From Chiloscyllium plagiosum (taxonomy: Eukaryota): a stretch of DNA of 64,000 nt. The position numbers were made by a program, and so were the translations under genes. Shown piece by piece: positions 5,718 through 63,444 of the stretch (positions are counted from its first letter, which is position 1; each line of letters opens with the position of its first letter). The stretch is taken from NCBI RefSeq assembly GCF_004010195.1, contig NC_057749.1:7939901-8003900 (forward strand), in the 5' to 3' direction. Below the pieces are notes generated by a model. That model worked only from the letters and a program-made list of their open reading frames with translations. It ran no database searches and was not told the origin of the DNA.

Positions 5718-5815
5718 ATTCCTGATGAAGAGCTTTTGCCCAAAACATCGATTTTCCTGCTCCTCGGATGCTGGCTGACCAGCCGTGCTTTTCGAGCACC
5801 ACTCTAATCTAGACT
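5718..5815 (+). mobile_element. Single-arm PLE terminal repeat with decayed hammerhead core
   Basis: cattcCTGATGAagagcttttgcccAAAAcatcgattttcctgctcctcggatgctg. Confidence 0.75.
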
Positions 5816-6021
5816 CCCTCATAACACTGTGGTATGAGGACCCCTCTTGTGGCACAGTGGTACCATCACTGCCTCTCTGAACAGGTTAATTAGGAAAAAT
5901 GAGTTAAATAAAAATAGTGCTCATTTGGGAGGGTATTAGACTGGCGATCTAATGACACTGGTAAAATCTTGGGTTCCTGCAAAATGAGCAGTTCGTGTCA
6001 GTGTCGGCATTTGCTTGTGAA

Positions 6022-6140
6022 CCATCTTGTGGTACAGAGGTAATGTCCCTATTCCTGAAATGAGCAACGTAAGTTCAAGTCCCATCTGCTCCAGAGATAT
6101 ATAATGACATCTGTGGACAGGTTGGTTGGAAAAATAGGCA
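6022..6140 (+). mobile_element. Short tRNA-like SINE (related heads near 5845, 6640 and 62830)
   Basis: cttgtggtacagagg (A-box-like) and gttcaagtccc (B-box-like); a similar head recurs in the window. Confidence 0.5.
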
Positions 6141-6179
6141 TTTTTATGGCTGAGTCAATCAATTTAGACTCTTATTTCC

Positions 6180-6367
6180 TGATTTGGAGGTGCCGGTGTT
6201 GGACTGGGGTGTACGAAGTTAAAAATCAAGCAACACCAGCTTATGGTCCAACAGGTTTATTCAGAAGCACTAGCTTTCAGAGCTTTCATCTAGTGGTTGT
6301 AGCACTCAAAAGCTAGTACTTCCAAATAAACCTGTTGGACTATAATCTGGTGTGTGATTTTTAACTT
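6180..6367. mobile_element. Fold-back element of a second PLE terminal-repeat family
   Basis: Arm aagttaaaaatca...ccaacaggtttatt...agcactagcttt is mirrored by aaagctagtact...aataaacctgttgg...tgatttttaactt; flanking direct repeat ttatttcc at 6172-6179 and 6368-6375. Confidence 0.75.
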
Positions 6368-7119
6368 TTATTTCCAGCTTCTTATTGAATTCAAATTCCA
6401 ACATTTTTGCCATGGCAGGATTCAATCCTATGTCAACTCCCTGGGGTCACTGGGTTAACAGTTGAGTGATAATACTTCCTTTCCTGTCATCAAACTGTCC
6501 ATAAAATGTGGCTGTCCTGTTCACCTCAACTACATCATGAGATACCAAGTCCCACATCCTAAACACTCTCTGGGTAAAGAAGTTTCTCCTGAATTCCCGA
6601 TTCAATTCTCAAATTGCTGAACATGTCATTTTTGTTGGAGCTTTGTAGCACAATAGGTAATGTCCGTATCTCTGAGACAGAGGTTCTGGGATCAGGTCCA
6701 ACTCGAGGTCCTGATGGCTGAGGAAGGTGTGTTCACAATGTTGCTACACAGGATGAGTAGCAACTTGTAAGTGCTACCAACACATGCCAATGGCATCTGA
6801 TAAGAGATTCCTGGTCAGTCGTGTGATGGAGTCTCTACCATCTCTCTGCATAGCTCCACACTGCAACATGCATGTGGAAGTTTACATCACCGCACCAAAT
6901 CAGACTCTCTGTGTGAACTGTAGCACACAACCATCTTGTATGTGTGGCCCTACGTTTTAATCTCACCCATAAGTAAAAACTTGAACAGAATGAGCCAACA
7001 GATCACCCTTCAGCTTTTGAGTCTTTACAGAGAAGAACCCCAGCTTGATCAGTTTCTCCTGGGAAGTGTGACCTCTCCAGTCACACAGAGTCAAGTTTTC
7101 AGCCCCATGTCTAAGTAAA

Positions 7120-7745
7120 GATGTGCTGATCTTGGAGGGGGTCCAGATGAGGTTTACAAGATTGATTCCAGGGATGAAGGACAGGTCTTATGAGGAACAG
7201 TTGAGGACTCTGAGTCCATAATCAATGGAGTTTAGAAGGATGAGGGGAGATCTCATTGAAACATATAGAATACTGTGATGCCTGGATAGAGTGGACATGG
7301 AGAAGATGTTTCCATTAATCAGAGAAACTGGGACCCAAGGGCACAGCCTCAGAGTGGATAGATGATCCTTTAGTACTGAGATGAGGATGAATTTCTTCAG
7401 AGTCAAAACGTGTGGTGCTGGAAAAGCACAGCCGGTCAGGCAGCATTCGAGGAGCAGGAGAGTCAACGTTTCGAGCATAAGCTCTTCATCAGGAATGTGA
7501 CTAATGTCTTCAGCCAGAGGGTGGTAAGTCCATGGGACTCATTTCCACAGTGGTGGCTGTGCAGACTAAGACATTGAGTGTATTTCAGGCAGAGAGAAAT
7601 AGGTTCTTGATTGATAAGAGGATCAAGAGTTCCAGGAAGAAGGAAGGAGAATGGGGTTGGTAAACAGCACAGGTACAAATGAAGGGGGGAGCAGACTTGA
7701 TAGGCGGAATGGCCTAATTCTGCTCCTAAATCTTTTGGCCTTATG
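7120..7745 (+). mobile_element. CR1 LINE 3' fragment, interrupted at about 7401-7502 by a PLE arm
   Basis: aggatgaggggagatctcattgaaacatat (RMRGDLIETY); ttcttcag on both sides of the insert. Confidence 0.8.
7465..7492 (-). ncRNA. Minimal type-I hammerhead ribozyme core in a PLE arm
   Basis: Minus strand reads CTGATGA-A-GAGC-TTAT-GCTC-GAAA-CG-TT. Confidence 0.75.
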
Positions 7746-8880: not shown

Positions 8881-8881
8881 G

Positions 8882-9890: not shown

Positions 9891-9932
9891 CTATTCTCCA
9901 GTCCTGGGGACAAAACATCGACCAACAGTGCT

Positions 9933-10712: not shown

Positions 10713-10831
10713 GGAGAAAGTGAGGACTGCAGATGCTGGAGATCAGAGCTGAAAATGAGTTGTTGGAAAAGCGCAGCAGGTCAGGCAGCATCCAAGGAAC
10801 AGGAGAATCGACATTTCGGGCACAAGCCCTT
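10713..10831 (-). mobile_element. Single-arm PLE terminal repeat with 13-bp TSD
   Basis: TSD cttgagcacagaa at 10700-10712 and 10832-10844; the arm stops inside the hammerhead core (...cacaagcccttc). Confidence 0.88.
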
Positions 10832-12315: not shown

Positions 12316-13175
12316 AGTGGCTGGGCTCTTGTTCTGAGACTGTGTCTCCTGGTTGTTGAAGAACTCAGCCTGGATACACATCCTGTCTGCAATTACCCTT
12401 CCTCCCCCATCAAGCTCTGCGAGAACTCTGTGCTCACCAATGAGATCACATTCTTATAAATTGCAGAGACCAGCTCCTTTGAATGCATCTGAGTATTTGA
12501 TGAGACTTGTATTTGTAGCTTTGTTGTGAGTGAATTATGTTTAGAGCCTGGAAATCTTCCTGTTTATATTAAATCAACACATTACAGAAGGCTTTGTGGT
12601 GAGAATAGACAATCAGTATCAGTAGTCACACCCCCATCCAGAACCAATCCATTTTACAGTTAAGAAAACCCATTTACAAATCCAATTGCAATGATTATCT
12701 GTGCAACAAAAGGTCAATTTCATTTTTGCTCTAACATTGTCTCTCAGCACAGTCCAGAAATGTGCCAGTTTCACTCTCCTGTCTATGGTTTAGCGAGTCT
12801 CAGCTGCCATGGCGATATAAGTATTGAGCTTTTGCTCAGTATTACTGTGATGAGGGTGGGGCAGAAATAAAATGGGATTTTCTGTCCTATTTGGAGATGG
12901 GGAAGGGAGAGAATCTGGCTTGATATTTCTTAGCAAAACTAATTGCCTGCTGTATCTTTTCACTGACCCAGGTGTGACAGGTTTTTAAAAATAATTCAAC
13001 CGTTTCTTACTGTTCAAGCTGTAGTCATGGTTTGTGAATGGAAAATTGTTTTGTCGTATGACATAGTTCATTGAGTAGGTAAAAACAATGACTGCAGATG
13101 CTGGAAACCAGATTCTGGATTAGTGGTACTGGAAAAGCACAGCAGTTCAGGCAGCATCCGAGGAGCAGGAAAATC

Positions 13176-13203
13176 GACGTTTCAGGCAAAAGCCCTTCAT
13201 CAG
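13176..13203 (-). ncRNA. Minimal type-I hammerhead ribozyme core
   Basis: Minus strand reads CTGATGA-A-GGGC-TTTT-GCCT-GAAA-CG-TC (G-U at the base of stem II). Confidence 0.7.
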
Positions 13204-13254
13204 GAATACAGGCAGAGTGCCTGAAGGGTGGAGAGAGGCACTCTGCCTGTATTC

Positions 13255-13282
13255 CTGATGAAGGGCTTTTGCCCGAAACGTC
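13255..13282 (+). ncRNA. Minimal type-I hammerhead ribozyme core
   Basis: CTGATGA-A-GGGC-TTTT-GCCC-GAAA-CG-TC; predicted cleavage after C13282. Confidence 0.8.
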
Positions 13283-13547
13283 GATTTTACTGCTTCTCGG
13301 ATAGTTCATTGAGTGTTTATTGTTTGGAGGGATATAGGCCACGCTTAGGCAGGTGGGACTAATTTAGTTTGGGATAATGGTCAGCATGGACTGATTGGAC
13401 TGAAGGGTCTGTTTCCATGCTGTATGACGCATGACTCACAAAAAGTCATGTACGCCCACTATTCTCTCCAAAACAGATGCTTTTTTTTTAATCATTGCAA
13501 GTCTTTGTTGAAATTCAGTAAAAATTCAAAACATGAGTGGTCAGAGT

Positions 13548-14095
13548 GTCATAGAGTCACACAGTCATACAGCTCAGAAACAGATCCTTCAGTCCAACTC
13601 ATCCATGCTGACCAAGTTTCCCAAACTAAACTCATCACATTTGCCTGCATTTGACCTATATCACTTGAAACCTTTCCTATTAATGTACTTTTCTAAATGT
13701 CTTTTGAATGTTGTAACTGTACCTGCATCCATCACTTCCTCTGGCAGTTACGAACCATGCTCTATGTTAAAAAGTTACCCCGCAGGTCCCTCTTTTAAAT
13801 TAGATTACATTACAGTGTGGAAACAGGCCCTTCGGCCCAACAAGTCCACAGCGACCCACCAAAGTGCAACTCACCCATACCCCTACATTTACCCCTTACC
13901 TAACACTACGGGCAATTTAGCATGGCCAATTCACCTGAAATCTTTCTCCTCTCACCTTAAAAATATGCCTACTTGTTTCGAACTTCCCTACCCTAGAGAA
14001 AAGACCTTATCTCTGACCTTCATGATTTTATAAACCTCTCTAAGGTCACTCCTCAGCCTCTTATGCTCCTTATAACTCAGACCCTCAAGTCCCGG
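13548..14095 (-). mobile_element. CR1 3' fragment with a nested HE1 3' part (about 13800-13938)
   Basis: gtcatagagtca tail, CR1 3' UTR and ttttataaacctc; insert ttagattac...ggcaatttagcatggccaattcacct. Confidence 0.75.
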
Positions 14096-14365: not shown

Positions 14366-15964
14366 ATTGTGCTAAAAGATTTTCTTGACTGATTGCAGTG
14401 ATCAATCCCTATCTGTCCCCAAATGGATTGAACAGCCCATCCTGTGGCATCGAAATCCTTTACAAATTGTCAAGGCCACTTGATAAACAATGGTGGCCTT
14501 CCTGTTGGGTTAGTTGGGAGGAATGTGTTGGTGTCTCATGTTGAGTCACCCTGTGCTCATCAGAGGCTACCCAATGTGACATTCTCCTGTTTACTCTTTA
14601 CCCCTTTGATCCCAGAAACTCCTATCCACTCCTGTTACTGGTCCTAGTAAGATATGCACTTACCTGAAATCATCATCTTGGGACTACATGCAGTCCCAGC
14701 AGTGGCCACTGTTTATGGTGGTGCTGCTGAGTCAAGAGAACTGCCTGCAGTTTGATTATGCAGCAGCTCTTGGAGGCAAGGCACCCTTTTCTCTGAGCAT
14801 GGAATTTCTGTCTGAGCCAATCACACTCCAAGTGTTTATTTGAGGAAACCCCCAGTGTAAATTTCAACCCTCCAGGTCCAAATGTTATGTATTCTACACA
14901 ATCCATGCTACACCTATTGCACGTCAAGTTGGAACATGCTCATATAAAGTATCCTAAATATATGTTTACCCGAAAAGGTTAGAGAGAAATCTACCTAATA
15001 TGCATTTGAATTAATCAATATTAACGGCTCCCATCATTGCCCAAGGAAGACTAGAGGGATATTGGGCCAAATACTGGCAAATGGAACTACATTAATTGAG
15101 GATATCTGGTCAGCATGGACAAATTGGACTGTTTGCATTCTGTATAACTCTATGACTCTATTTTCCATTAGCAAGTTTTCAGAAGATTTTCCATTGATTA
15201 ATTACTTTCTTACTGAAATATTCATCTTCACTTTTATGAACAGAACTTGCTGTACAGATGTACTGCACATTTAGGTTTTGGGGTCTTTTCTTCTACACTG
15301 AATGGATACAGAAATTGAGGCTTTTTTTGGCAGGTCAGTTTGTAAAACAATCTGAAAACAATTAATGTTTCAGGGTCGAATATTATGGTCATTTGACCCA
15401 AAATGTTAACTGTAATTTCTCTCTACAGATGCTGCCAAACCTGCTGAACTTTTCCAGCAATTTCTGTTTTTGTTTCTGATTTACAACATCCGCAGTTCTT
15501 TTGGTTTTGTAGCCAATTTTCATGTTCTAGGGAAAGAATTGTCACTGATGAGCAAACATTTTTGTCAACTTCCCTTTAGTGTAGCCCTGGGCATGCATTT
15601 TATCCATCAGCTCTGAAGCATTCAATTCTTTTAATGGCACATGCGCGAGTTGTCATTGGCAGTTTGTCTGGTATCTGCTAATCCCTGGGATGATATTTCT
15701 TCTCTGGGAAATGTCACCCTTGCTACAAGTATTGTTGCCATGGTAACTGCCATTTGATTCTGGTGAAAGCTGCTTTTTGTCCAGTGCCCCAGTACCACTT
15801 TACATCCTTCGCAGTGAACCTGCAGATATGTTTAAACCCTGATGACAAATCAGGCAAGCATTTTTCTAACTAGTTCACAAATCCAAAGAAGCATTACAGC
15901 ATTTTTGCACCTTTTCTGAAATGGATCTATCTAAAGATTCCATAAGAAATGCATCTAGCTTCTA

Positions 15965-16644: not shown

Positions 16645-17117
16645 ATCTGTGTGGAGTTTGCACGTTCTCCCCAGGTCGAAAAGTTTGGCACTGGAAAAAG
16701 CACAACAGGTCAGACAGCATCCAAGGAGCAGGTGAATCAACGTTTCGGGCACAAGCCCTTTGTCAGGAATTCTCCTGCTCCTTGGATGCTGCCTGACCTG
16801 CTGTGCTTTTTCCAGTGCCACACTTTTCAACTCTGACTCTCCAGCATCTGCAGTCCTCACTTTCTCCTCCATGTTCTCCCCATGTCTGTGTGGGTGTTCT
16901 CTAGTTTCCTCCCATAGTTCAAAGATGTGCAGGTTAGGGTGGATTGGCCCATGGGAAAGTGCCCATAGTGTGTAGGCTAGGCTGGTTAGCCATGGAAAAT
17001 GCAGTGTTATAGGGTGGTGGTGGGTGTGCGTGAGCCGGGATGGAATGCTCTTCGGAGGGTTGGTGCAAACTTGATGGGCTGAATGGCATGCTTCCACACT
17101 GTAGCAATTCTATGAAC
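16645..17117 (+). mobile_element. HE1-type SINE interrupted by a PLE fold-back (16674-16869)
   Basis: tctgtgtggagtttgcacgttctcccca, insert, catgttctccccatgtctgtgtggg...cttccacactgtagcaattctatga; 13-bp TSD with one CpG change. Confidence 0.85.
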
Positions 17118-18315: not shown

Positions 18316-18717
18316 GGCCAAGCGTTTTACCAGATCAACTTCAAACTTGCTTGGGCTCAGATATGTGGATCATGTACAATGTTTAGTATCTAGAATTCCA
18401 GATCTTCATTCACCGCCTTGCACTGGGCTGTCAGCTTCAACTGGCCTCTCGGGATGAGTATTTTTCAGTCATACAGTCTCAGTTCTATTTCTAAGGGCTT
18501 CATTTTTGGGTCATCACTTTGCACAAGTCTTTGAATCTCATGTAACGCCAGTGTTTATCTGATACTTCACAGTTACTTGATGATTTCCTTCTGGGGTCAT
18601 CATTCTAACAGTCACAAATCCTATCTGATGTTCCCAATATGTTGTGTATTTAATCATCAAAATCATCATTTGACATCCTTTCCATAGCTAGCTTCATAGT
18701 CTTGCTTTGCTTCTTTC

Positions 18718-18935
18718 GAGGAGAAAGTGAGGGCTGCAGATGCTGGAGATCAGAGTCAAGAGAGTGTGGTGCTGGAAAAGCACAGTAGGTCATGCAGCAT
18801 CTGAGGAGCAGGAGAATCAACGTTTCAGGCATAAGACAGTCCTGATGAAGGGCTCCTGCCAAAAACGTTGATTCTCCTGCTCCTCAGATGCTGCATGACC
18901 TGTTGTACTTTTCCAGCACCACACACTCTTGATTC
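18718..18935. mobile_element. PLE fold-back element with 11-bp TSD
   Basis: TSD ttgcttctttc at 18707-18717 and 18936-18946; mirrored arms; ctgatgaagggctcctgccaaaaacg near the centre. Confidence 0.88.
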
Positions 18936-19251
18936 TTGCTTCTTTCCAGCCTAATCACTTGAATGTAACATGGTTCAGCTTCTAGCAGTTTGCACACCTG
19001 CTTTCCCCATTGTGGACATGCTTCCTTTTCATTTGTCTGGTGTCTTCAGTGATATTTACATCCTGAAATCTGGCTTTCCTGCAAACATTTCTTCCTTCCT
19101 TCCATTATGTTTTGCTTTTTAGGCTAGGACCGCTATTTGGTAAAATTCAAATCCCTTCGCACATAAACACAATTTAGGGATGATTAGAGAGAGACAGGCA
19201 CACAATGCCTATTGAAAGCCCACACAATGTCAGCTGTACGCTTCTGACATC

Positions 19252-20081
19252 CTGGATGTAGGTTTGCTCGCAGACGTTTCGTCACCATGCTAGGTAACAT
19301 CTTCAGTGAGCCTCCTGTGGTATTGCCATTTCCTGTTCTTTTGCTCAGGGGTAAATGGAGTCCAAGTCAATGTGTTTGTAGATAGATTTCCAGTTGGAAT
19401 GCAATTCTTCTAGGAATTGTCGTGTGTGTCTCTGTTTGGCTTGTCCTGGGATGGATGTGTTGTCCCAGTCGAAATGGTGTCCTTCCTTATCTGTATATAA
19501 GGATACTAGTGAAAGAGGGTCATGTCTTTTTGTGGCTAGTTGATGTTCATGTATCCTGGTGGCTAGTTTTCTGCCTGTTTGTCCAATGTAGTGTTTGTTA
19601 CAGTCCTAGAATGTTATTTTGTAAATGACATTAGTTTTGCTCGTTGTCTGTATGGGGTCTTTCAAGTTCATTAGCTGCTGTTTTAGTGTGTTTTGCGGGT
19701 TTGTGAGCTACCATGAAGCCAAGGGGTCTGAGTAGTCTGGCAGTCATTTTTGAGATGTCTTTGATGTAGGGGAGAGTGGCTATGGTTTCTGGACGCGTTT
19801 TGTCTGCTTGTTTGGGTTTGTTGCTGAGAAATCAGCAGACTGTGTTCAGAGAAAAAGAACAGGAAATGACATCACCACAAGAAATGACATCACCAACCCA
19901 AAGAAACCCAAGCATATAAATAGAAAACAGGCATCATCAGCAGTGATTCGTCTGAAGGCTCGCTGAAGATGTTACCTAGTTATGGTGACAAAACATCTGT
20001 AAATGAATCTTCCAGCTTAGCAAACAAACCTATATCCAGAACCTCAACCTGATCTACAAATCTTCTCAAAACACACTAACG
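19252..20081 (-). mobile_element. Penelope-like element: GIY-YIG endonuclease end with terminal repeats in inverted orientation
   Basis: Minus translation NVIYKI..DCNKHYIGQTGRKLATRIHEHQ...EGHHFDWDNT; plus-oriented repeat about 19847-20080; TSD tctgacatc at 19243-19251 and 20082-20090. Confidence 0.9.
19273..19306 (-). ncRNA. Minimal type-I hammerhead ribozyme core (6-bp stem II family)
   Basis: Minus strand reads CTGAAGA-T-GTTACC-TAGCAT-GGTGAC-GAAA-CG-TC, flanked by gctca and tgcgagc as a possible stem I. Confidence 0.8.
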
Positions 20082-27203: not shown

Positions 27204-28011
27204 GGTATGTGGATGACACCTTTGTAATCATTAAAACACAGAAATAGAGAACCACACCGGATCATCAACGCCACACTCACAGGAATCCAATTCACTAGAG
27301 AGGAAGAAAAGGACAACAACTCCCATTCCTAGACGTGATGGTACAGAGAACACCGAACGGAGAATTCGCCACAAAGGTATACAGGAAAGCCACACACACA
27401 GACCAAGTCCTGAACTACGAAAGCAACCACCCCAACAAACACAAAAGAAGTTGCATCAAGACACTGTTCAAAAGGGCTACAACACACTGCAGTACACCAG
27501 AACTGCAAAAAGAGGAAGAAGAACACCTATACAATGTATTCGCCAAAAACGGATACCCGCGCAATTTCATCAACAGATGCCTAAGGGAAAGACAACAGAA
27601 TGAGGACATGCCACAACCCAAAGGACTAGCCAAACTACCGTACATCAAGAGCATTTCTGAACTGACAGCCAGANNNNNNNNNNNNNNNNNNNNNNNNNNN
27701 NNNNTCGACTGGGACAACATTACTATTATAGGACAAGCCAAACAGAGAACAGCCAGGGAATTCCTAGAGGCATGGCACTCATCCACAGATTCAATCAATA
27801 AGCACATCGACCTGGACCCAATATACCGACCACTGCAACGGACAGCTGGAACTGACAACCGGAAGCGGCAGAGACAAACCACTATAAATGCCGGAGGAAA
27901 CATCACAGAAGCGCTTCACAGGAGGCACCCAAACACTGAGGATGTCACCTGGACAGGGGACAAAATGTCTGCAACACAAATTCCCAGCTCGGTGAACAGA
28001 ACCACAACAAC
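27204..28011 (+). mobile_element. Penelope-like element, 5'-truncated (RT C-terminus, endonuclease end, terminal repeat)
   Basis: Starts at RYVDDTFVII; ORF 27335-28069 has VYRKATHTDQVLNYESNHP and DWDNITIIGQ..REFLEAWHS; TSD aggtgaaatgtca at 27191-27203 and 28012-28024. Confidence 0.93.
27936..27969 (+). ncRNA. CpG-decayed hammerhead core in the PLE terminal repeat
   Basis: CTGAGGA-T-GTCACC-TGGACA-GGGGAC-AAAA-TG-TC; GAAACG appears to have become AAAATG. Confidence 0.6.
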
Positions 28012-28912: not shown

Positions 28913-29350
28913 AACATAGAAAACAGGAGGAGTAGGCCACTCAGGTGGGTTCCTTGATTCAGTGCGATCATGGCTGATCTGTTTGTGTTTTTATTCCACA
29001 CTCCTACCTAACCCCAAGAATCTTTGATTTCTTTGCCTAACAAGAACCTATTTAACCTTAAAAACATTCAGTCACTCCAAATTGTAAAAGCCTTAAATAC
29101 ACTCAGTTTGCATTCATCTGATGTGGTATATTAAAAAAGGAATTGATCTGAAGGCTAGATCCATGGGTGGAGGGGTCTGAAATCTTCACTCGTTCTCACA
29201 AGTTAATTTTGAAGTCAATTCCTCATTTGGTATATTGGTTTGGATGCTGGGATTTTGGATCCTTGGGAGGCTTCCTTGTCAGTGTTGGAGGTTTCCTTTG
29301 TCTTGTCAATAGGTTGATTCATCTCAATCCAGTCCTAATGAATATTCAGA

Positions 29351-29562
29351 GCTGAAAATGTGTTGCTGGAAAAGCGCAGCAGGTCAGGCAGCATCCAAGG
29401 AACAGGAGAATCGACGTTTCGGGCATAAGCCCTTCTTCCTCCAACCACAAGGGATGAACTCTTATTTCCAGACCATAGCAACACGACGGTTGGAGGAAGA
29501 GCGCCTCATCTTCCGCCTAGGAACCCTCCAACTACAAGGGTTGAACTCTTATTTACAACAAA
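29351..29562. mobile_element. Chimeric PLE insertion: inverted terminal-repeat arm joined to the PLE ORF C-terminus, 18-bp TSD
   Basis: TSD tcctaatgaatattcaga at 29333-29350 and 29563-29580; plus-strand peptide ATRRLEEERLIFRLGTLQLQGLNS. Confidence 0.88.
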
Positions 29563-30670: not shown

Positions 30671-30955
30671 GGATTGAAGGTGGTTCTGTGAAGTTAAGAT
30701 ACAAATCAATCATAGTGTATCGGAGAGGCAGAATGCATACATGGGGTCTGAATGTCCTCCTCCTGCTCGGATGACACCATAAGGTCAAATAAACTTCAAA
30801 ACCATGAAAAGAACTTATAGATGTGAAAATACCTCCTTCTTGGCAAACTCAGAAACAGGGAACTTGAATGCCTAATGCAGACAGTGTTTTATTGAAAACC
30901 ACAAATGCTGGAGATCACAGCGGGTCAGGCAGTCTCCATGGAGAGAGAGCAAGCT

Positions 30956-30986
30956 AATGTTTCGAGTCTAGATTACTCTTCGTCAG
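30956..30986 (-). ncRNA. Hammerhead core in another PLE arm family (element about 30893-30998)
   Basis: Minus strand reads CTGACGA-A-GAGT-AATCTAG-ACTC-GAAA-CA-TT; the mirror arm starts ctgatgaaga at 30989. Confidence 0.6.
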
Positions 30987-42651: not shown

Positions 42652-42772
42652 GAGGACTAAGTGAGGACTGCAGATGCTGGAGGTCAGAGTCAAGAGTGTG
42701 GTGCTGGAAATGCACAGCAGGTCAGGCAGCATCTGAGGAGCAGGAGAATCAATGTTTTGGGCATAAGCCCTT
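42652..42772 (-). mobile_element. Single-arm PLE terminal repeat with 8-bp TSD
   Basis: TSD ccagtcag at 42644-42651 and 42773-42780; arm ends at gggcataagccctt. Confidence 0.8.
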
Positions 42773-44327: not shown

Positions 44328-44516
44328 GAGACAAAAAAACTGCAGATGCTGGAATCTAAAATAGACAGGCAGAAAGCTGGAAGAACACAGCAGGCCAGGC
44401 AGCATCAGGAGGTGGAGAAGTCAGTATTTCGGGTGTAACTGAAGAAGGGTTACATCCAAAACATCGACTTCTCCACCTCCCGATGCTGCCTGGCTTGCTG
44501 TGTTCTTCCAGCCTCC
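44328..44516. mobile_element. PLE fold-back element (GGGT-TAC stem family)
   Basis: gctggaagaacacagcaggccaggcagcatc is mirrored by gatgctgcctggcttgctgtgttcttccagc; CTGAAGA-A-GGGT-TAC-ATCC-AAAA-CATC at 44439-44465. Confidence 0.8.
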
Positions 44517-46270
44517 TTCCCTCAACTAGTTACCTTACTTGCCTGCCAGATAGACAGGTATTTGGGTTAGTAGTGACCGGAGGCCCTTAAGTGGCTATTA
44601 GTTGACAATTATAGGCCATAATTGATGATGGGTTGAGAAAGTCCCAAATGGAGCTTTGTCATCCAGCATTTAATTAATAGATTAGGTGATGAGAAAGGAG
44701 ATGGTGAGTATCTCAAATTTTCCCAATTTGTTCCCTCTGCTTGCCACCTCCCGTGAGGTGAAAATTCTACCTGTTGAGCATTAGTTCATAGGAAAGCACA
44801 ACCTGGAACTATTTATGCTGATACACAAAAAGCCTCTTCTGCTTTGGCACACAGAATGCTACTTATTTGTTTAAAAAATAGTCTTGTGTAAGTTACTGCG
44901 AAAATGAAAGATTGGAAAAATGTAAATATTTTGTTAAGTATCGGCCAAGCACATTTAACTTGTCACTCTGAAGAGATGGCATTCTGTTTAATGTGTCATC
45001 TCAGTTCTGAGACTCATCATTTCTTAATGATGTACCACACAATGCCAGCTGCAACACAGCTGCAGTTTCAGATCCTGCAGGCTCCAATTTCACTACATCA
45101 CACACTGTATTTGACTGCAATGGGGATAATTCACTTCAGGTAGTCTCAAGAAAGGAAGCAAAGCACAGGCAACCACTGAAAGCAATATTTCTACAAATGT
45201 GAGGACATTTGTATTTCTCTTCAAAGTCATGCTTGGGAACTAACATTGAGTCATTGCAATTCCAGTCTCAAAGTTTGGTCTCTATCCACAGTCCGTGAGA
45301 TTCTGCAGTACAGGTCTGGGAAATTGGGCTTATGATAGGATTCCTTTCTAGTGAAATGGTCATTCGGGCTAGTATTCAAGCTTTCACATTAATCGGAGCA
45401 CAAATTGTGAATCGTTAGCTCTTCCCATCTCTCCCACATTCCCAATATCCCACTGCATTCTCCTGACAAAGAGGGCAGGAAATGAGCTGATGCCCAGTCT
45501 CTGGCTTGGTGCTTGCTTGGTCCCCACTAAATATTTAACCCTTCCTGCTGGGGTAACAGATTTACCTCCTTTTGTTGTCACTTTCTGTTGAGTGAGCTCA
45601 CTTTGGGTTGGTTGAAACAGGACATTCATATCATAATATTGTGAAGACCTTTAGAAATAGGAACAGGTGCAGGCCATTTGGCTCCGCAAGCCTGCCCCAA
45701 CATTCAATTGGATCATGGCTGATCCAGCATTCCTCGGGTTCACGTTCCCGTGTTTTCCCCATAGCCCTTTGATTCCCGACTGATCAAGGATCGAGCTTAT
45801 GCTCGAAACATCGACTCTCCTGTTCCTCAGATGCTGCCTGACCAGCTGTGCTTTTCCATCACCACACTTTCTTGACAAGAATCCACATTTACTCATCTAG
45901 TTATATTGGGCAAGTGCAATAGCTTGAGCTGTTTAAATTTGGTCCAGGTTTAATGGTGGACTGGCATTTAATCATTCCTGCCTTCCACACAAACATAGAA
46001 CTTTAATTTTGCTTGTCCTCCATACTTCTCTGTTTCTCTACTTGTTTTAAAACTATCTCCCTGAGCTCCAATGACGAGTCATCTCAACTCGAAACATTAG
46101 CCAGCTCTCTCTCCATGAATGCTGTCTGACCTACTGTGATCTCCAGCATGTTTTTGTTTTCCGTACAGATTTCATCATCTGCAGTAGTTTATTCCCCAAT
46201 TCAGTGCTGTTGTCAACTATAGTTTTGATTAAAGCATCATTTTTTTTAAATTGGTGTCTGTGAAGCAGTC

Positions 46271-46361
46271 GCTTAAAAATGTGTTGCTGGAAAAGCGCAG
46301 CAGGTCAGGCAGCATCAAAGGAGAAGGAGAATCGACATTTCGGGCATAAGCCCTTCTTCAG
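46271..46361 (-). mobile_element. Single-arm PLE terminal repeat with 9-bp TSD and hammerhead core (46334-46361)
   Basis: TSD gaagcagtc at 46262-46270 and 46362-46370; minus strand CTGAAGA-A-GGGC-TTAT-GCCC-GAAA-TG-TC. Confidence 0.85.
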
Positions 46362-46691
46362 GAAGCAGTCCTCAATGTCACCACAGTAAAGTAACAACAT
46401 GAATAGAACCTTAGGAACTGTATTCCTGTTCAACATTAAATTGTTACTAATTATCTTGAAGCAGCACATGACACAAAATTCATAATCGGAGGACAAAACA
46501 TCGTGGGGGGGGCGAGCATCCAATAAGTCTGTTGAAGATAAGTAACTCATCCATTGTTCCACTCTCTCAAGAAAGGCAGACCACAGTTAGTGGTTAAACC
46601 TGAGGGTCACCATACCTCAGGCAAGGAGAGAGATTGAGAATGAGAGTCCTTCATGGTAACCTCAGCTGATGCAGGCATCAAAACCCTATTC

Positions 46692-46719
46692 CTGATGAAG
46701 GGCTTTTGTCCGAAACGTC
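46692..46719 (+). ncRNA. Minimal type-I hammerhead core in a PLE arm (about 46688-46782)
   Basis: CTGATGA-A-GGGC-TTTT-GTCC-GAAA-CG-TC. Confidence 0.75.
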
Positions 46720-47988
46720 GATTTCGAAGCTCCTTGGATGCTGCCTGAACTGCTGTGCTCTTCCAGCACCACTGATCCAGATCCTACCAGATATCCAGCC
46801 AACTGACCCCAAATGTTGAAGGTACAGATACAGGGAGCTCATATTAAGTAATGGTAATAACAGTTTGTTTTCAGGGTCTGACAAATGCAAAGAGATTTGC
46901 TGAAAGCTGACTGATTGCAGCTGTGCCAACTGAGCAAGAAGCTTTAATGTGGAGAAAGGGTGACTTTACACTGAGGTTTGAGTGCAATAGGTTTTGGTAA
47001 ACGACGAATCTTTCTGTCTGATGTTTATAATGAGTTCTTTCAATTTTTCTTGCCAATGCGACATAGTTTGTGTGTTACTTTTGTGTAATCATTTTTAATG
47101 TTCTTTTGCTACAAGTATATTGGCAGTCTCTTGTGAATTTGTTCAGTGACTGAACACCATAAAACCGCAAAAAAATATTCAAACTTATGGTCTATCAAGC
47201 CAACCTTCACTCTGGGATCTGATTTGTCCAGTATTACCATTAGCTGGGGATCACTACACGAAGTAGTGACTGTCAGGCAACCACGAGCTGAATTTATAAA
47301 AAGTATTTTTTTTCTCACAGTTCCTGTCTCAGTTCATCTTCAAACCTTAAATATGATTTGAAGCTCTTGAACCTTCTCGGTACTGACACGAACAAAATGT
47401 TTATATGGGTTCTCCGCTTATGTAATGATTTGACCAACGTGTTGTAAAATCTGAATTATATTGGAAAATAAAATCCAAAACTATTAAAATTCTCAGCAAG
47501 GGTTTGTCCTCTGTGCATGGTCTGGACCAATGTGTGTTCTATTCCCCAGCTGCCTAACACAGTCACAAGCACATTAATTGATTATTAAAGACTGTGCTGC
47601 ATTTTAAATATTAATTGATTATGATTGATTAATCAGCACAGGCTTAATTAGCACCCTGCTGCATTGTTCCTCCTCTCCTCTGCTAGATAAGATTGTGTTT
47701 TCTGAAAGTTCCAGCTAATAGGTTCCAAGGATTGGCCTTTCCGTACAGATAGTTAAGAACAGCTAACATTTCTACAATCTGATCAATAGACACTACAGTT
47801 CAGTCAGTGCACATCAGCAAATCTGCCATGTGATTTTGAAAATTGAAGTTTTTTTTCTTGAAATTGAGAAGCCAATCACGACCAATTTTTACATACAATA
47901 GAGGAGAATATAAGGCGGGAGCAAATGCATTTCTTTACATTGCTCCCTGCACATCTCCAGGATAACTACAATGGGTTCCACAACAATA

Positions 47989-49552: not shown

Positions 49553-50214
49553 TGTGCACATGATAAGACAAGATGACAAGGTGATGTGACACTTGGCTTT
49601 TCGAAAGTTAAAGATTGTTGTCAACAGAGTTGACTGGGAGGGTTAAAAATTCTTAACATTTCTAATATGTTGCAAAAGATTAATTAGCGTAGGAGGAAGT
49701 GAAAAGTGTGTTATGTGAGGGTGCCAAAGATGTTCTAATCCATCACCTGCCAAGTTTGCAAGAAAGCTGCAGTGTGAGAACTAAAATGCAGTTGTATATA
49801 TTATATATAATACACACAGAGAGAAGTACATTTTATCCCTTTACATTTGGTATTTATAAATTGGAATAATAAGCAATTTGATTTGAAATGACCACCTTGA
49901 ATCAAATACGTAGTTTCCAGAAATGAGTTTCTGAGTTAGTTCTATTAACTATTCACTTTTACTTCACTGGACTGCAAAAGTTCAAGTATCTGTGTTTATA
50001 GGGTATTTGCTGGGCTCAAAATTTAGGCAATTATACCAGAGGGAGTTTAGCTTCTTGCATTGAGCTGTTGTGAAAATAAAGCAAATTATTGATAAAGGTG
50101 AAGTAAGTGACTTATTTAAGAGTCATAGAGCTGTACAGGAAGGACACAGACCCTTTGGTCCAACTCTTCCATGCCTCTAAGTTTCCTGAACTAAACTAGT
50201 CCTGTTTGCCAGTA

Positions 50215-52904: not shown

Positions 52905-53415
52905 GAGTTAAGTATTGTTTACAATTCTGGTCACCCTGCTATTGGAATAATGTTACTAATCTGGAAATGGTGCAAAGAAAGACTTACTGGAGAGTTTGAA
53001 TAGGCTGGGGCTATTTTCCCTGGAGCGGAGGAGGTTGAGGGGTGACCTTATAGAGGTTTATGAAATCGCCAAGGGCATCAGGATAGGGTGAATAGCCAAG
53101 GGCTTTTTTCCCAGGTTGGGGAGTCCAAAACGACAGGGCATAGGTTTAAAGTGAGAGAGGAACATTGAAAAGGAACCTAAGGGGCACCTTTTTCACACAA
53201 AGGGTGGTGCGTGTTTGATATGAGTGCCAGAGGAAGTGGAGGCTGGTACAATTACAGCATTTAAACGGTATCTGGATGGGTACATGAATAGAAAGTGTTT
53301 AGAGGGATACAGGCCAAATGCTGGCAAGTGGGACTAGATTAATTTAGGATGTCTGGTCAGCACGGATGAGTTGGACCAAAGGGTCTGTTCCTTTCTCTAC
53401 AGCTCTTCGACTCTG
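52905..53415 (+). mobile_element. CR1 3' portion
   Basis: aggttgaggggtgaccttatagaggtttat...ttcacacaaagggtggtgcgtg. Confidence 0.85.
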
Positions 53416-55535
53416 TTTAGATCGATGTAGGTAATGCATAGGCAGGAAAAGGCCTCAATGCTAGTTGTGAATGCAGAAAAACATGAAGGTTTTAGCAATA
53501 TTTTTATTTCACCAGGATTTAGGTGAGAGGTCAAAACAAAAGGTTTTCTTTGAGAATATCAGGGTGGGAACCCAATCACAGATATCAGTACAGGCCTAGT
53601 TACCTTCGACAGATACTCTGCAATGCTCCTTGTGAATGGTAATACCCTTCTGTCTTAAAACTGCAGCTATTAATGTCAGAAAGACTGCGCCAACTGTGCA
53701 ACACTGTTGTTGGGTAGAGGTCAAAGGAGGTGGGCAGAGCTGGACTGCCGTAGTGCTACCACAAGTCGTCCCCTGGTGGAGAAAAAAAAATCTCACGTGT
53801 TCACTTCAGACCTTAGTTAGAATGTTTGTTTTCCATGAAAAGAAATCTCGCAGGCACAAGCAAGTGGCTTGGGCCATCAGTAATCTGTCTATTGTTTTTT
53901 TTTAATAGTTTTGTACCCAGGCTTTTGTTGGGGGCTTCTGGCCTAATGACAGGCTTGATGAAGGAGTAGCCAAGCAATATAAAGCTCAGGGCAATCCTGC
54001 TTTCTGCTCCAGACAGCAGGCTCGTCTAGCTTGTCATTATGTAGCCCAACCCAATTAGGCTACAATAATAGCAATGTATTGAAAGCCAAATGGTGAATAA
54101 TAAATTATGACATTTCAAAATACAAAAAAGAATTAAAAATGTAAATTTGGTGGCCCAGGAGAATGCTGAGCAAAGAGGTGTGATTAGTTTAGGATTACAA
54201 ATCTGACGTACTCTGACAGATGCCATTCTGATTCCGATTCCAAATGACAGCTGTGTTGATAGAGATTAAAGCTAACATTCTGCTTTCCTATGAAAGCAAA
54301 TTAATTGTGACATTTTTATATGTCTTTCATTAAAATTTATCCAGTTGCGATGATAAAGCTATTACACAAGCGGCTTTAGAATTAGCCCAACCTTTTCATG
54401 AATTTGCAGCCTGCCCCAGACCCCAGTGAAAGCCTGACTTGATTCAAAGGACATCAATGAAGTCTGACACATTATCATTGCTCCCACTGCAGGGAGTACC
54501 TGGTAAATAAATATTGATGCCAAGCTTTGCAAAATGGTTGATCTGTGTACAGAAGCCACATATTTTCAGTCACTCACCTAAAACCGATTTCCTTCCATAG
54601 GAACAGGAGGAGGCTATTAAACTCATAAAGTCAGTTCCGCCATTTAACCAGAGCATGAGCGATTGGTATCTTATCTGCCTTGGTTCTGTGACCCTCTCAC
54701 CAAAAACCGATCAAACTCCTTTAACATTTTCAATTGAACTCCCTGCGTCCAGTCAAAAAGGTTTCTGGGAGTGGTCAAAATGGACATTTTCAACAATTCT
54801 GTGTCCAGAGTGTTCCCTAGTATTGCCTGTGAATGATTGAGCTCTAATTAAAAGACTATGCTTTTTTATCCTGTACTCTGCATTCTGCAGAAATAGCTTC
54901 CCTGCGTCTACTTTATCGACTCCTTTAATCAACTGCAACACTGTAATTAAGTCAACCCCTTAACCTGCGAACGCTGAAGGAATGTACGAATTAGGTGCAG
55001 GAGTGGGACTCTTGACCTCTTGACCTTGCTCTGTCATCCAGTAAGATTATTACAATGATCATTAAAACACATTCTTGCCTACCTCCATTAACCTTCCATG
55101 CCTTTTCCCTAAATCAAAAATCTCTAAAAATATTCAAAGACTCTGTTTTTGAGGAAAATAGTTCACAGACTTATGATTCTCTGTCCAGAAAAAAGTCCTC
55201 TTCATTTTTGTCATAAATGGGCAAACCTTTTTTTTCAATAACAGTGACCCCTAACTCTAGATTAGCCTGCATGTGGAAACATCCTTGACATTGTCCAGTC
55301 CCCCTCAGAATCTCCTATGTTTCTTTCAAGTCATCTCCAACTCTTTTAAATTCCACTGGATACAGATTTTACCTCGGTCAAAAATTCCAGAAATATTTGA
55401 AATGGAGTACTTACCAACAACCTCCTTGAAAAGCATTTTAGCTTTTAAAGTTCAATAACAGCCAAGATGAGTGTATGAGTGTTCAAAGGTCCAGTGACCT
55501 TGACTGTTACCAACTTTGGCTGTAAATTCCTGGGC

Positions 55536-55735
55536 GAAAGTGAGGACTGCAAGTGCTGGAGATCAGAGTTGAGAATGTGGTGCTGGAAAAGCACAGCAGG
55601 TCAGGCAGCATCCAAGGAACAGGAGAATCAACATTTTGGGGATAAGCTCTCCATCAGAAATCCTGCTCCTCATCGATTCTCCTGCTCCTCGAATGTTGCC
55701 TCACTTGCTGTGCTTTTCCAGCACCACACTCCCGA
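55536..55735. mobile_element. PLE fold-back element with 16-bp imperfect TSD
   Basis: ctgtaaattcctgggc at 55520-55535 versus ctataaatttctgggc at 55736-55751; mirrored arms. Confidence 0.8.
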
Positions 55736-55749
55736 CTATAAATTTCTGG

Positions 55750-58099: not shown

Positions 58100-58228
58100 G
58101 GAAGACAGAAAACATGCTGGGAAGACTCAGCATGTCAGGTAGCAACTGTGAATAGAGGGAAAAAGTTAACATTTTCAGTTGATGCTTTTCCATCAGATAG
58201 AATATTAACACCACACATTAATTTTCCA

Positions 58229-58260
<32 letters not shown>

Positions 58261-60350: not shown

Positions 60351-60933
60351 GAGAAAAATAGGAAGCAGTCTCTCGGAAGGTGAAATTGGCGGCAGGTTTA
60401 GGACGAGGTAGGAATTAGTCTGTGTAGATGAAGACACAGACATCTGGTATGGAAGTTAATGGCAAAGTCAGCCAGTTACTGCAGCAGTATGTCTAAAGGA
60501 ACTGTGCTGACAGACAAGGTGTTACAATGGGTATGGAGCAGTACATGCTGCTACATTGTCAGCAGGATGTAAATTAGTTGAGTCGTGTATGACTGCAGTT
60601 ATTCATGTCGATTTCACTGTGAAAATTTGGTGAATTAAATATTAGAAATCAGCACATGAGCACCTCATTAACCCAAACCTTGTCTTACTGACAGTGTACT
60701 TTCTTGTGGTCTGCGGAGGTGTCAAGGATCAGAGGTCCTCGTGTGTTATTAAGTGATTACTCAGCATGATATCAACAGTGGTTGCATGGTTGCAGTATAG
60801 AACACTGCCCATCTGTGCACAGATTTGGTCTCGAAGGAATATTGTTGCCCATTAGAAAATACAGAGGTGAGTGACATTTGATAATTCCAGATCATGGGAG
60901 CTTGCAGCAGAAGGAAAGAATAAGCCAGTTATT

Positions 60934-61530
60934 AGAGTCATAGAGTCATAGAGATGTACAGGATGGAAACAGACCCTTCGGTCCAACCCGTCCATGCCAA
61001 CCAGATATCCCAACCCAATCTAGTCCCACCTGCCAGCATCCAGCCCATATCCCACCAAACCCTTCCAATTCATATACCCATCCAAATGCCTCTTAAATGT
61101 TGCTTCATCTGGCAGCTCATTCCATACATGTATTACCCTTTGTGTGAAAACGTTGCCCCTTAGTTCTCTTTTATATCTTTCCCCTCTCACCTTATGCCCT
61201 CTAGTTNNNNNNNNNNNNNNNNNNNNNNNNNNNNNNNNNNNNNNNNNNNNNNNNNNNNNNNNNNNNNNNNNNNNNNNNNNNNNNNNNNNNNNNNNNNNNN
61301 NNNNNNNNNNNNNNNNNNNNNNNNNNNNNNNNNNNACGTGCAAACTCCACACAGTCAGTCGCCTGAGGCGGGAATTGAACCCGGGTCTCTGGCGCTGTGA
61401 GGCAGCAGTGCTAACCACTGTGCCACCGTGCCGCCCACATGGTTTTCTGAACCCTTTCAAGTTTCACAACATCTTTCCAATAGGAAGGAGACCAGAATTG
61501 CACGCAATATTCCAACTGTGGCCTAACCAC
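60934..61530 (-). mobile_element. CR1/HER1 3' portion across a gap, with a nested well-preserved HE1 head (61336-61434, minus)
   Basis: (AGAGTCAT)n tail; FTQRVIHVWNELP; RPQLEYCVQFWSP; minus strand ggcggcacggtggcacagtggttagcactgctgcctcacagcgccag. Confidence 0.85.
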
Positions 61531-61904
61531 TAGTTGCATCTCTTTTTGAAAAGTGGAGACATTTTCAAGATGGCAGAGGGAGAAAACGATTCGGGGAAAT
61601 TGATTATCAGAGGTGATGGTTTCAATTGCTAAGGTCACAAGTTCCACATGGAAAATGACAAAAAGACCTTGTGATGTTGCATCCATGGAGAGACAGCAAG
61701 CTAACGTTTCGAGCTGAGATAACTCTTCATCTCTGATTTGTTACTTATTCATGGGATGACGGGAGGCCAGCATTTATTGCACATCCCTAGTTGCTCTTGA
61801 GAAGGTGGTAGCGAGCTGTCTTCTTAAATCGCTGCAGTGCACTTGCTGTGGGTTGACACACAATGCCGGTAGGGAGGGAATTCCAGGAGTTTGAGCTGAC
61901 AACA

Positions 61905-62565
61905 TGAAGGAACAGCGACATCGGACTAAGCCCCACTCTCTGCAAGTGGATCCTTAGTTTTCTGACCCACAGGCCACAAACAGTGAAGATTGGGGACAAT
62001 ATTTCACCCTCACTAATACTCAACACTGGAGCCACCCAGGGCTGCGTAGTCAGCCCCCTACTGTACTCACTGTGTACCCATGACTGCGTCGCCAAATACC
62101 AGACTAATGCCATTTACAAGTTCGCTGATGACACCACTATAATTAGTCGAGTCTCAGATGGTGAAAAAACAGACTTCAGATGGGAGGTGGAAGACTTGGA
62201 AAATGGTGCACTGAGAACAACCTAGATCTCAATGCCAGCAAAACGAAGGAACTCATTATTGACTTTCGGCAGGATGTTATTCATGCCCCCTCCACCTTAC
62301 ACATTAACAGCACAGAGGTGGAACGAGTGGGGAGTGTCAAGCTGCTGGGAGTGGTCATCCACAACAAGCTTTCTTGGACTCTTCATGTGGATGGACTGGT
62401 TACAAAGGCCCAACAACATCCCTTCTTCCTCAGGCAGCTGAAAAAATTTGGCATGATGGCGAATACCCTTGCCAACTTTTATAGGTGTACCAGCAAGAGC
62501 ATTCTGTCTGAAAGTGTCACAACCTGGTACAGCAACTGTACCATTCAAGATCAGAGATGGTTACT
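61905..62565 (+). mobile_element. Rex1/Babar-like LINE RT fragment
   Basis: LNTGATQGCVVSPLLYSLCTHDCVA..IYKFADDTTII; LNASKTKELIIDFR; AQQHPFFLRQLKKFG; NFYRCT. Confidence 0.85.
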
Positions 62566-62815
62566 GATGATGGAGAGTAGACTGATTGGGTTGTAATTGG
62601 CCAGGTTGGATTTGTTCTGATTTTTGTGTACAGGACATACCTGGGCAATCTTCCAAATTGTCGGGTACATGCCAGTGTTGTAACTGTACTGGAAGAGCTT
62701 GGTGAGGGAAGCAGCATGTTCTGGAGCACAAGTCTTAAGTACTATTGCCGGAATGTTCTCAGGGCCTATTGCCTTTGCAATATCCAGTGCCTCCAGCTGT
62801 TTCTTGATATCCCAT
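62560..62815 (-). mobile_element. Non-LTR RT N-terminal fragment (CR1/L2 group)
   Basis: Minus ORF KAIGPENIPAIVLKTCAPE..WKIAQVCPVHK..NYNPISLLSIIS. Confidence 0.8.
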
Positions 62816-63410
62816 ATAGCAGTATAACTAGGCCTCTTGTGGTGCAATGCTAATATCTCTTCCTCTGAGCCATTATAACATCACTGTACAAATTGATTAG
62901 CAATAACCTAGCATCCATTGCTTCCTCGATCCTAAAATCCTATTCAGCCAAATTCTCACGACCTGCTCTTCCAGAAACTTACAGGCCCTTTCTGAAGAAT
63001 CAGCTTAGACCACATAGCAGCTATGACCTAATGGAGGGTTTGGGGTCTGAATGGTACACTTCTTTTCCTATGTTTCTATATCAATTAATACAAACACTGT
63101 CATGTTCTGTCCTCACAATCTGTGTCAAACATTCAATAATGACTTTTACTTCTTACCATGCATTGAGAATGGCTACGGTATTGAAAGTGAGATGTACATC
63201 ATAATGTAACAATGACATCAACAGTCGCTTGCAAAACACTGAAGAAAGGAGGGTGAAATAATTCGACAAAGGCCAGTGTCCTGTCTACAAGTTACCCTTT
63301 ATTAACACATGCGTAGGACATGATACCGACACAGCTACTTCAGAGCTGGCTCCTGAAGTGAGCAGAACCTGGATGTACATTTGCTCGCTGAGCTGGAAGG
63401 TTTGTTTTTA

Positions 63411-63444
63411 GATGTTTCGTCACCATACTAGGTGACATCATCAG
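63411..63444 (-). ncRNA. Hammerhead core (6-bp stem II family)
   Basis: Minus strand reads CTGATGA-T-GTCACC-TAGTAT-GGTGAC-GAAA-CA-TC. Confidence 0.72.

Follow-up and report, generated by a model that had tools for sequence, protein, structure and literature searches.

Minimal type-I hammerhead motifs in a 64-kb window of the Chiloscyllium plagiosum genome, probably carried by insertions of Penelope-like elements

Introduction

Penelope-like elements (PLEs) of metazoans carry a minimal type-I hammerhead ribozyme (min-HHR) which, according to the sections of PMC4209133 drawn on here, combines the conserved core boxes and one unpaired base with a G10.1-C11.1 closing pair, a palindromic helix III and a short, ill-defined helix I. 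In the same sections, a genome has several consensus families whose stem II changes are compensated, copies are mostly solitary with some pairs on opposite strands, and the motif occurs in fishes, coelacanth, frogs and reptiles; sharks are not named there. PLEs themselves are reported across all vertebrate lineages, a cartilaginous fish included, in the part of PMC4350176 used here. Here we analyse one window, by which we mean a whole 64-kb stretch of Chiloscyllium plagiosum DNA (NC_057749.1), whose hammerhead-derived sites resemble the published min-HHR in composition, in family structure and in the arrangement of the copies. We consider it probable, at roughly 0.8, that these motifs are minimal type-I hammerheads brought by PLE insertions of three families.

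One comparable system is the Anolis element Poseidon_Ac (PAc), which has been characterised biochemically, in contrast to the sequence analysis presented here. As excerpted from PMC11167929, its hammerhead overlaps the start of the open reading frame (ORF), its enzyme extends both DNA strands, and reverse transcription starts at an AC-rich stem-loop, ~111-118 nt past the ORF start; the minimal active template starts about at the hammerhead cut site. Family 2 of the window shares the overlap of hammerhead and ORF start, and the insertions in the window, like those of Poseidon_Ac, have 3' ends roughly 45-100 nt past the cut site beside an AC-rich tract, with two alternative ends that set an optional "tail" (PMC11167929, same excerpt). 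The systems differ in that the Poseidon_Ac ORF starts at stem II, whereas that of family 2 starts 48 nt before C3, and in that families 1 and 3 have no ORF. Regarding genomic architecture, PLE insertions are recognised by a second, inverted copy, itself 5'-truncated, next to the 5' end, and by a 30-40-bp tail that is often found at one end only, as described in the portion of PMC8557442 relied on here; the window likewise has inverted 5'-truncated neighbour copies, a one-end tail of ~40 bp and 5' truncation. The whole of the published insertion signature, with two 3' ends, a one-sided tail, inverted arms and target-site duplications, can thus be seen in one window.

Motif search and anatomy

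A strict pattern, CTGANGA-N8-20-GAAACGT, matches the window five times against 0.01 expected from 100 dinucleotide shuffles, and a relaxed pattern gives 32 matches, overlapping ones included, against 6.03 expected. A descriptor that asks for a single unpaired base, GAAA and no fewer than 4 bp in stem II gives nine hits, whereas 200 dinucleotide-shuffled sequences average 0.085 and never exceed 2. These excesses, together with the recurrence of four unforced features (the unpaired base, G10.1-C11.1, ACGU and compensated stem II changes), refute chance matching in AT-rich repeats as the origin of the family copies, even though one of the ten matches of one search, 4037(+), whose stem has 3 bp, falls outside the families and looks fortuitous. 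All 11 copies listed in an initial annotation of this DNA hold CUGANGA-N-(stem II)-GAAA-(C/U)(G/A)U-H on the strand assigned to them. Further copies were found at 1809(+), 1787(-), 5722(+), 16766(-), 18842(+) and 55657(-), plus core-truncated ones; some, such as 1787(-) and 1809(+), lie outside the range originally considered.

Families were sorted by all-against-all BLAST and by alignments within the window. In family 1 stem II reads GGGC/GCCC, or GAGC/GCUC in one subfamily; family 2, with four copies, pairs GUCACC or GUUACC with GGUGAC; family 3, at three loci, has GAGU/ACUC and a 7-nt loop. The core, stem II and helix III were counted over 25 hammerhead-derived sites parsed by position in a script, and the stem II pairs had to be counted in this way because cross-family MAFFT alignments misplaced the stem II columns. 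Judged from sequence, the motif is, feature by feature, the published minimal type-I hammerhead of PLEs (PMC4209133): the unpaired base 9/10.1, the G10.1-C11.1 pair and the palindromic 15.2-16.2 all match, and the type-I core proposed initially is upheld. CUGANGA is kept in 15 of the 25 parsed copies and GAA in 17, the remainder being truncated or mutated; both boxes along with A15.1, U16.1 and an H17 that is not G are kept in nine. The unpaired base between A9 and 10.1 occurs in every copy (25/25), and its identity agrees with the extra A or U noted earlier: it is U in family 2, and in families 1 and 3 it is A apart from one T and two C, each in a decayed copy. The 10.1-11.1 closing pair is G-C in 21 copies, G-U in two and G-A in two.

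Each of the stem II types first quoted (GGGC/GCCC, GAGC/GCTC, GAGT/ACTC, GTCACC/GGTGAC and GTTACC/GGTGAC) was recovered. The stem measures 4 bp in families 1 and 3 and 6 bp in family 2, while the available text of PMC4209133 gives a stem II "larger than usual", of 6-8 bp. Among the outer cells of stem II in the 25 copies, 93 of 100 are paired, compared with 70.6 +/- 2.7 in 2000 partner shuffles, none of which reached 93, a result not to be read as a probability because the copies are related. Pair 2 occurs as G-C (12 copies), A-U (7) and U-A (4), pair 4 as C-G (16), A-U (3) and U-A (2), and both sides of one stem II pair are changed in 3 of 16 family-1 sequences. The covariation claimed for stem II is therefore real, but it comprises few independent events, one within family 1 and the others between families. 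For family 1, RNAalifold returns stem II and a 5-bp UGCUG/CAGCA stem at -7.5 kcal/mol, with covariation nearly nil.

U, A, C and G all occur at position 7. The sole G copy, 27936(+), is without G12 and one stem pair; only one copy with C keeps the first box intact, 30986(-), and it reads ACAU at the site of ACGU. The reduction of stem III to the palindrome ACGU applies to 11 of the 25 copies; 12 others show AUGU or ACAU, in line with the CpG-type decay that had been suspected. G12 is lost in 19963(+), 27936(+) and 44439(+), which are accordingly decayed, and in family 2, where G12 lies within a CpG, it is lost in two of four copies. Core, stem II and ACGU are found together in five copies (7492(-), 13203(-), 13255(+), 46692(+) and 19306(-)). 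As far as can be read from the letters, most dispersed copies are thus incomplete at insertion or decayed since, and mostly relics.

Minimal PLE hammerheads need dimers (PMC4209133 and PMC6765202, both in excerpt) and cleave poorly in vitro (PMC4209133, in excerpt), and the Anolis PLE hammerhead needs protein for activity, according to the sections of PMC11167929 at hand. The window has no direct tandem hammerhead pair; all close pairs are inverted, so that one transcript of these loci would be without the two sense copies of a dimer. Stem II is kept in every predicted fold of four intact copies, as monomers or as homodimers, and an intermolecular AACGUU helix is seen in 7492(-) only; these predictions are of low evidential value. 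The phrase "very high density of self-cleaving RNA motifs" is hence an overstatement, considering five intact copies in 25, the inversion of the pairs, family-1 5' ends that fall in the first box, and the empty Rfam search given below.

The absence of tandem arrangement bears also on an alternative origin. Non-LTR (long terminal repeat) retrozymes and the SINE-like (short interspersed nuclear element) elements of Schistosoma are, in the parts of PMC7229834 and PMC6765202 consulted, likewise short, non-coding and retroposed, with a type-I hammerhead and a weak helix III; they form tandem arrays or promoter-plus-hammerhead SINEs with canonical loops, whereas the copies in the window are dispersed or inverted, never tandem, and of the minimal PLE type. 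The copies could in principle be such retrozymes, that is, tandem type-I hammerhead repeats spreading via circular RNA. The hammerhead type is the same, and a preprint (10.64898/2026.07.22.740005), in the portion seen, ties animal retrozymes to the pseudo-LTRs (pLTRs) of PLEs and reports tandem retrozymes in one chondrichthyan. We nevertheless regard this origin as improbable: there is no motif-bearing tandem array in the window (the arrays at 22218-22749 and 34730-37112 detected with Tandem Repeats Finder, TRF, are unrelated), all close hammerhead pairs are inverted, and no unit is a permuted monomer because every unit continues unbroken through the predicted cleavage site.

Coding context of family 2

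By the content of its reading frames family 2 is a PLE. The copy at 27204-28011(+) reads, upstream of the 27936 hammerhead, the C-terminal part of a reverse transcriptase (RT) from the YVDD motif (RYVDD), a linker and an endonuclease C-terminus, the latter two separated by a 31-N assembly gap (27674-27704), and the same endonuclease coding is present on the minus strand upstream of 19306(-) and 63444(-). A peptide of 125 residues from 27299-27673 has ten protein matches at E <= 0.001 among 93 candidates, the best 92% identical; the named ones are all "uncharacterized" proteins from the orectolobiform sharks Chiloscyllium, Hemiscyllium, Rhincodon and Stegostoma with RVT_1 and/or PF26215. Pfam finds RVT_1 in the relatives P0007 (E 3.9e-11) and P0001 (1.2e-08), just below the curated cut-off in P0002, and weakly in P0004 (E 0.0025). 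Translated, 19348-19605(-) aligns with the endonuclease region at the C-terminus of P0002 at 71% identity (E 5e-40), and the GIY-YIG-type endonuclease motif VYKIPCKDC..YIGQTGR..HEH can be read by eye. The nearest atlas clusters, taken as a lead only, join RVT_1, HTH_animal and GIY-YIG; the RT piece has no match among PDB sequences.

The relation of the hammerhead to the ORF is specific. Positions 27888-27992 encode the first 35 residues of the 656-residue P0007 (29/35 identical, E 6e-18), which places the hammerhead 27936-27969 inside the ORF start, in codons 17-28, so that 48 nt of the PLE ORF precede it. The end of the endonuclease in one unit runs into the ORF start of the next; the partial-tandem pLTR organisation is implied only by this passage from ORF end to ORF start, there being no direct tandem in the window. 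The two whole family-2 insertions both have target-site duplications, of 13 and 9 bp. The 27204-28011 copy ends directly after AACCACAACAAC, and in the pair at 19252-20081 one arm ends ...ATCCAG while the other is 42 nt longer, these 42 nt continuing the ORF as in P0007. The initial annotation had spoken of several Penelope-like families, which is borne out by observation for family 2 and is a probable reading for families 1 and 3.

Insertion boundaries and palindromes

A family-1 profile built from seven long copies, with C3 at profile position 3, identifies 27 arms at 20 loci in the window, two of which are family 3 by their hammerhead. Head-to-head palindromes, their arms joined at the hammerhead ends, occupy 7 of the 18 family-1 loci. 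Target-site duplications of 8-14 bp flank six family-1 insertions, three whole palindromes and three solo units (Table 1), and because the duplications bound the whole palindrome, each such palindrome is one insertion event. The 3' ends of the 27 arms lie at profile positions 133-134 (8 arms), 117-120 (4), 90-108 (11), 80-81 (3) and 52 (1), and are interpreted as two classes about 40 nt apart, the longer one having the optional tail. In all seven palindromes one arm extends to 117-134 and the other stops at 52-108. According to our reading of the alignments, the shorter 3' end follows a ...UUCCAGC...ACCACA... tract in both families 1 and 2. The insertion signature of PLEs is in this way found in family 1 (head-to-head loci, two 3' classes, duplications) and again in family 2 (42-nt tail, duplications). 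Optional tails arise from two reverse-transcription start sites in Poseidon_Ac, with which the two 3' ends in the window match, and extension of both strands by its enzyme fits the head-to-head pairs (PMC11167929, in the sections used).

The 5' ends are of a different nature. Seventeen of the 27 arms start at profile positions 2-7, and in families 1 and 3 the 5' ends are grouped within ~10 nt of the first conserved box. As delimited by the duplications, one of the three solo units has C3 as its first base, another A9 and the third the unpaired A. Sequence shared upstream of the core is confined to 24 nt in a single pair (13077-13300), as found with BLAST. The long arm of 16674-16872 begins 1-2 nt from the predicted cleavage site (16769-16780, junction GAAT|TCTCC), a single case that may be chance or the copy of a cleaved RNA. 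Two family-1 insertions are situated within other repeats. That at 16664-16882 lies in a repeat which we take to be a SINE-like element. The other, 63516-63752, is nested in a family-2 PLE copy and fits the habit of PLEs to insert into earlier PLE copies, reported in the part of PMC6765202 used here.

The palindromes raise the question of whether family 1 might be a foldback or miniature inverted-repeat transposable element (MITE) type of DNA transposon, in which the hammerhead-like string is incidental. Seven palindromic loci in 18, their long hairpins and their sub-threshold microRNA-precursor matches in Rfam could be taken in this sense. Such an origin is disfavoured and, to our judgement, very improbable: solo arms have duplications of their own (10713-10830, 42652-42772 and 46271-46361), the duplication length varies, the outer ends differ between the two arms of every palindrome, and the conserved terminus is central in the palindrome instead of outer. 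Moreover, family 2 has the same architecture and encodes RT and endonuclease. The microRNA-precursor-like matches, located at 13195-13263, 44391-44497 and 18787-18901, arise because family-1 palindromes form long hairpins; the mir-1993 match scores 37.1 bits against a gathering score of 82.

Short units and a proposed mechanism

Families 1 and 3 are apparently non-coding units of about 90-130 nt that start with the hammerhead and continue into a conserved downstream module of ~60-100 nt. The module, GGAUGCUGCCUGACCUGCUGUG...CCAGCA, is common to both families, though stem II and linker differ. In most family-1 copies a stop closes the frame of the stem-II-loop ATG after 23-26 codons. Long units keep the frame of the second ATG open throughout, though indels shift it in some copies; its 41-residue translation has no protein sharing words, which is weak evidence. 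Families 1 and 3 thus rank as PLE-type insertions rather than autonomous PLEs, no PLE coding capacity being found in them.

From the arrangement of these parts we infer how retroposition may have proceeded, what the downstream module may do and where ribozyme activity, if any, would be placed. A tandem master copy of family 2 would read RT-endonuclease followed by ORF start and hammerhead; the family-2 insertions stop on the 3' side of the hammerhead, at either of two points ~42 nt apart just past the AC-rich tract, and vary in 5' truncation. Families 1 and 3 would be inserted by the same kind of machinery. In family 1, the template RNA may have begun near the first conserved box, or the reverse transcriptase may have stopped there, and the unit would then represent about the minimal RNA module needed for recognition and priming by the PLE enzyme. 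Any self-cleavage would be confined to tandem master copies, acting as dimers and probably with the help of protein, as described for other PLEs (PMC4209133 and PMC11167929, in the sections on which we draw).

A variant compatible with this PLE-driven explanation, to which we give somewhat less than an even chance, sees families 1 and 3 as non-autonomous, SINE-like micro-elements whose own transcripts start at the hammerhead and which parasitise the PLE enzyme, and not as truncated descendants of an autonomous PLE. The unit length of 90-130 nt, the start of 17/27 arms within 5 nt of C3, the lack of a conserved protein-matched frame with an empty peptide search, and the module shared by the two families all suggest it, and so does the published minimal PLE template with its start near the cut site (PMC11167929, as excerpted). 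The same pattern would, however, be expected if the reverse transcriptase met a strong stop at the hammerhead, or if an autonomous element began its transcription a short way upstream.

A more specific and, in our estimate, unlikely possibility is that family 1 is a hugely amplified, SINE-like "micro-PLE" of hammerhead and priming module in which the hammerhead serves template pairing, not cleavage. The hammerhead region would be both the 5' boundary and a site of RNA-RNA pairing via the ACGU palindrome; pairing would unite two templates in a dimeric PLE enzyme, both strands would be extended, and the two cDNAs would meet at the hammerhead. Template pairing of this kind would account for the large share, more than one third, that head-to-head hairpins tailed on a single arm have among the insertions. 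If true, the genome would be seeded with long hairpin-RNA loci.

Evidence against the assignment

Several observations weigh against hammerheads brought by PLE insertions of three families. All evidence comes from a single window. A search with hammerhead models, which the initial annotation had suggested as a check, was negative: Rfam returned no hammerhead match in the window at the gathering score, and none of the 19 matches at E up to 10 belongs to a hammerhead family. The Rfam hammerhead models probably expect a helix III hairpin. Helix I is poorly formed, with at most 2 bp and scattered pairs in family 1, and in copy 19306(-) with 2 + 3 bp possible around a bulge, where 4-5 bp are expected of the PLE type; in most family-1 insertions, which start at or inside the first conserved box, it is without an element-encoded 5' strand. 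Considering the protein evidence, Pfam called nothing on the family-2 pieces of the window, GIY-YIG included, and in the relatives this domain is weakly matched by P0004 alone (E 0.027; 15.2 bits, where the cut-off is 22.6). The window holds no full-length or tandem PLE and no autonomous partner of families 1 and 3, and family 1 has no frame that is both conserved and protein-supported.

The boundaries, too, are not wholly regular. The short 3' class is spread over ~18 profile positions and 8 of the 27 arms fall in neither class. The clustering of family-1 5' ends at the hammerhead is unlike the usual broad 5' truncation of PLEs and, together with the lack of a pLTR tandem in the window, departs from the architecture given in the excerpt of PMC8557442.

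Significance

The shark families are additions to the known link between hammerheads and PLEs, in which the short hammerhead-first units and the hairpin pairs are the unusual part; the finding leaves knowledge of hammerhead catalysis unchanged. A literature search gave no paper on shark hammerheads among the titles listed and none with these sequences, Repbase, Dfam and preprint supplements lying outside that search; metagenome contig scans with the hammerhead and with the downstream module returned no loci in either case. The short units of family 1 constitute a natural deletion series and suggest how little RNA a PLE enzyme needs, with the hammerhead as 5' limit. By our own sums, ~27 family-1-type arms amount to ~2.6 kb, roughly 4% of the window, and family 2 to ~2 kb, together ~7%. 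This local density is far above the counts of ~4,000 and 9,000 per genome in the cited portion of PMC4209133, a comparison of a single window that permits no extrapolation. If the local density did apply genome-wide, the relics would make up a substantial share of the genome and would supply hairpin transcripts; the family-1 palindromes, if transcribed, would give long hairpins that could feed small-RNA pathways.

Catalogue of copies

The loci of the three families are collected in Table 1.

Table 1. Hammerhead-bearing and related insertions in the window, by family and position
Feature	Coordinates	Strand	Remarks
Family 2, head-to-head pair	19252..20081	.	flanked by 9-bp duplication TCTGACATC
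Family 2, minus arm	about 19252-19800	-	endonuclease coding; intact hammerhead 19273-19306(-)
Family 2, plus arm	about 19869-20081	+	decayed hammerhead 19963-19997(+); 42-nt 3' tail absent from other arm
Family 2, 5'-truncated PLE	27204..28011	+	RT from YVDD, endonuclease, next ORF start; 13-bp duplication AGGTGAAATGTCA
Family 2, decayed hammerhead	27936-27969	+	within the 27204..28011 copy
Family 2, copy running off window end	63369..64000	-	endonuclease C-terminus; hammerhead 63411-63444(-), ACAU for ACGU; split by family-1 palindrome 63530-63738
Family 1, head-to-head pair	1659..1899	.	long arm 1659-1790(-), short arm 1806-1899(+); hammerheads 1787(-) and 1809(+) decayed
Family 1, solo, short 3' form	5719..5816	+	hammerhead 5722 decayed: G12 lost, ACAU
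Family 1, solo (GAGC/GCUC), short 3' form	7397..7495	-	hammerhead 7465-7492 intact by sequence
Family 1, solo, long 3' form	10713..10830	-	14-bp duplication; starts at unpaired A, first box absent
Family 1, head-to-head pair	13077..13300	.	14-bp duplication; arms reach 24 nt upstream of core
Family 1, hammerheads in 13077..13300	13176-13203(-), 13255-13282(+)		both intact by sequence
Family 1, divergent fragment	15397..15499	+	without hammerhead; profile positions 22-120
Family 1, head-to-head pair	16674..16872	.	10-bp duplication; sits in another repeat; 16766(-) lost G8
Family 1, head-to-head pair	18716..18950	.	hammerhead 18842(+) decayed
Family 1, solo, short form	29346..29438	-	5' end inside first conserved box
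Family 1, solo, long form	42652..42772	-	8-bp duplication; starts at A9
Family-1-like head-to-head pair, old, divergent	44339..44512	.	arms 81% alike; hammerhead 44439(+) decayed
Family 1, solo (GAGC/GCUC), short form	45792..45870	+	first box lost
Family 1, solo, short form	46271..46361	-	9-bp duplication; starts exactly at C3 of CUGAAGA; helix III AUGU
Family 1, solo	46689..46799	+	hammerhead 46692-46719 intact by sequence; one G-U pair in stem II
Family 1, head-to-head pair	55529..55741	.	hammerhead 55657(-) decayed
Family 1, head-to-head pair, youngest	63530..63738	.	arms 96.5% alike over 170 nt; 14-bp duplication; both arms begin after first conserved box
Family 3, unit	30906..30986	-	GAGU/ACUC, 7-nt loop, CUGACGA; helix III ACAU
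Family 3, unit	46068..46186	+	first box decayed
Family 3, unit	61682..61737	-	first box decayed; ACGU kept

Other repeats in the window

The assembly of the window has three gaps with a total of 437 N, at 23894-24170, 27674-27704 and 61207-61335. Other retroelement remnants are located at 23464-24411(+) and 62165-62596(+); of their ORFs, one matches RVT_1 (E 5.2e-8) and is broken by an N gap, and another matches ALKBH8_N (E 3.4e-7). TRF identifies a 21-bp minisatellite at 34730-37112 (113 copies, 85% match), which is the cause of long spurious ORFs in several frames, and a G-rich tandem array of period 35/139 bp with about 15 copies at 22218-22749. A separate, abundant repeat of ~100-130 bp emerges from side matches in BLAST, with copies at 2697-2817, 13347-13437, 13554-13671, 31833-31936, 41192-41318, 49425-49554, 53296-53392 and 60934-61060.

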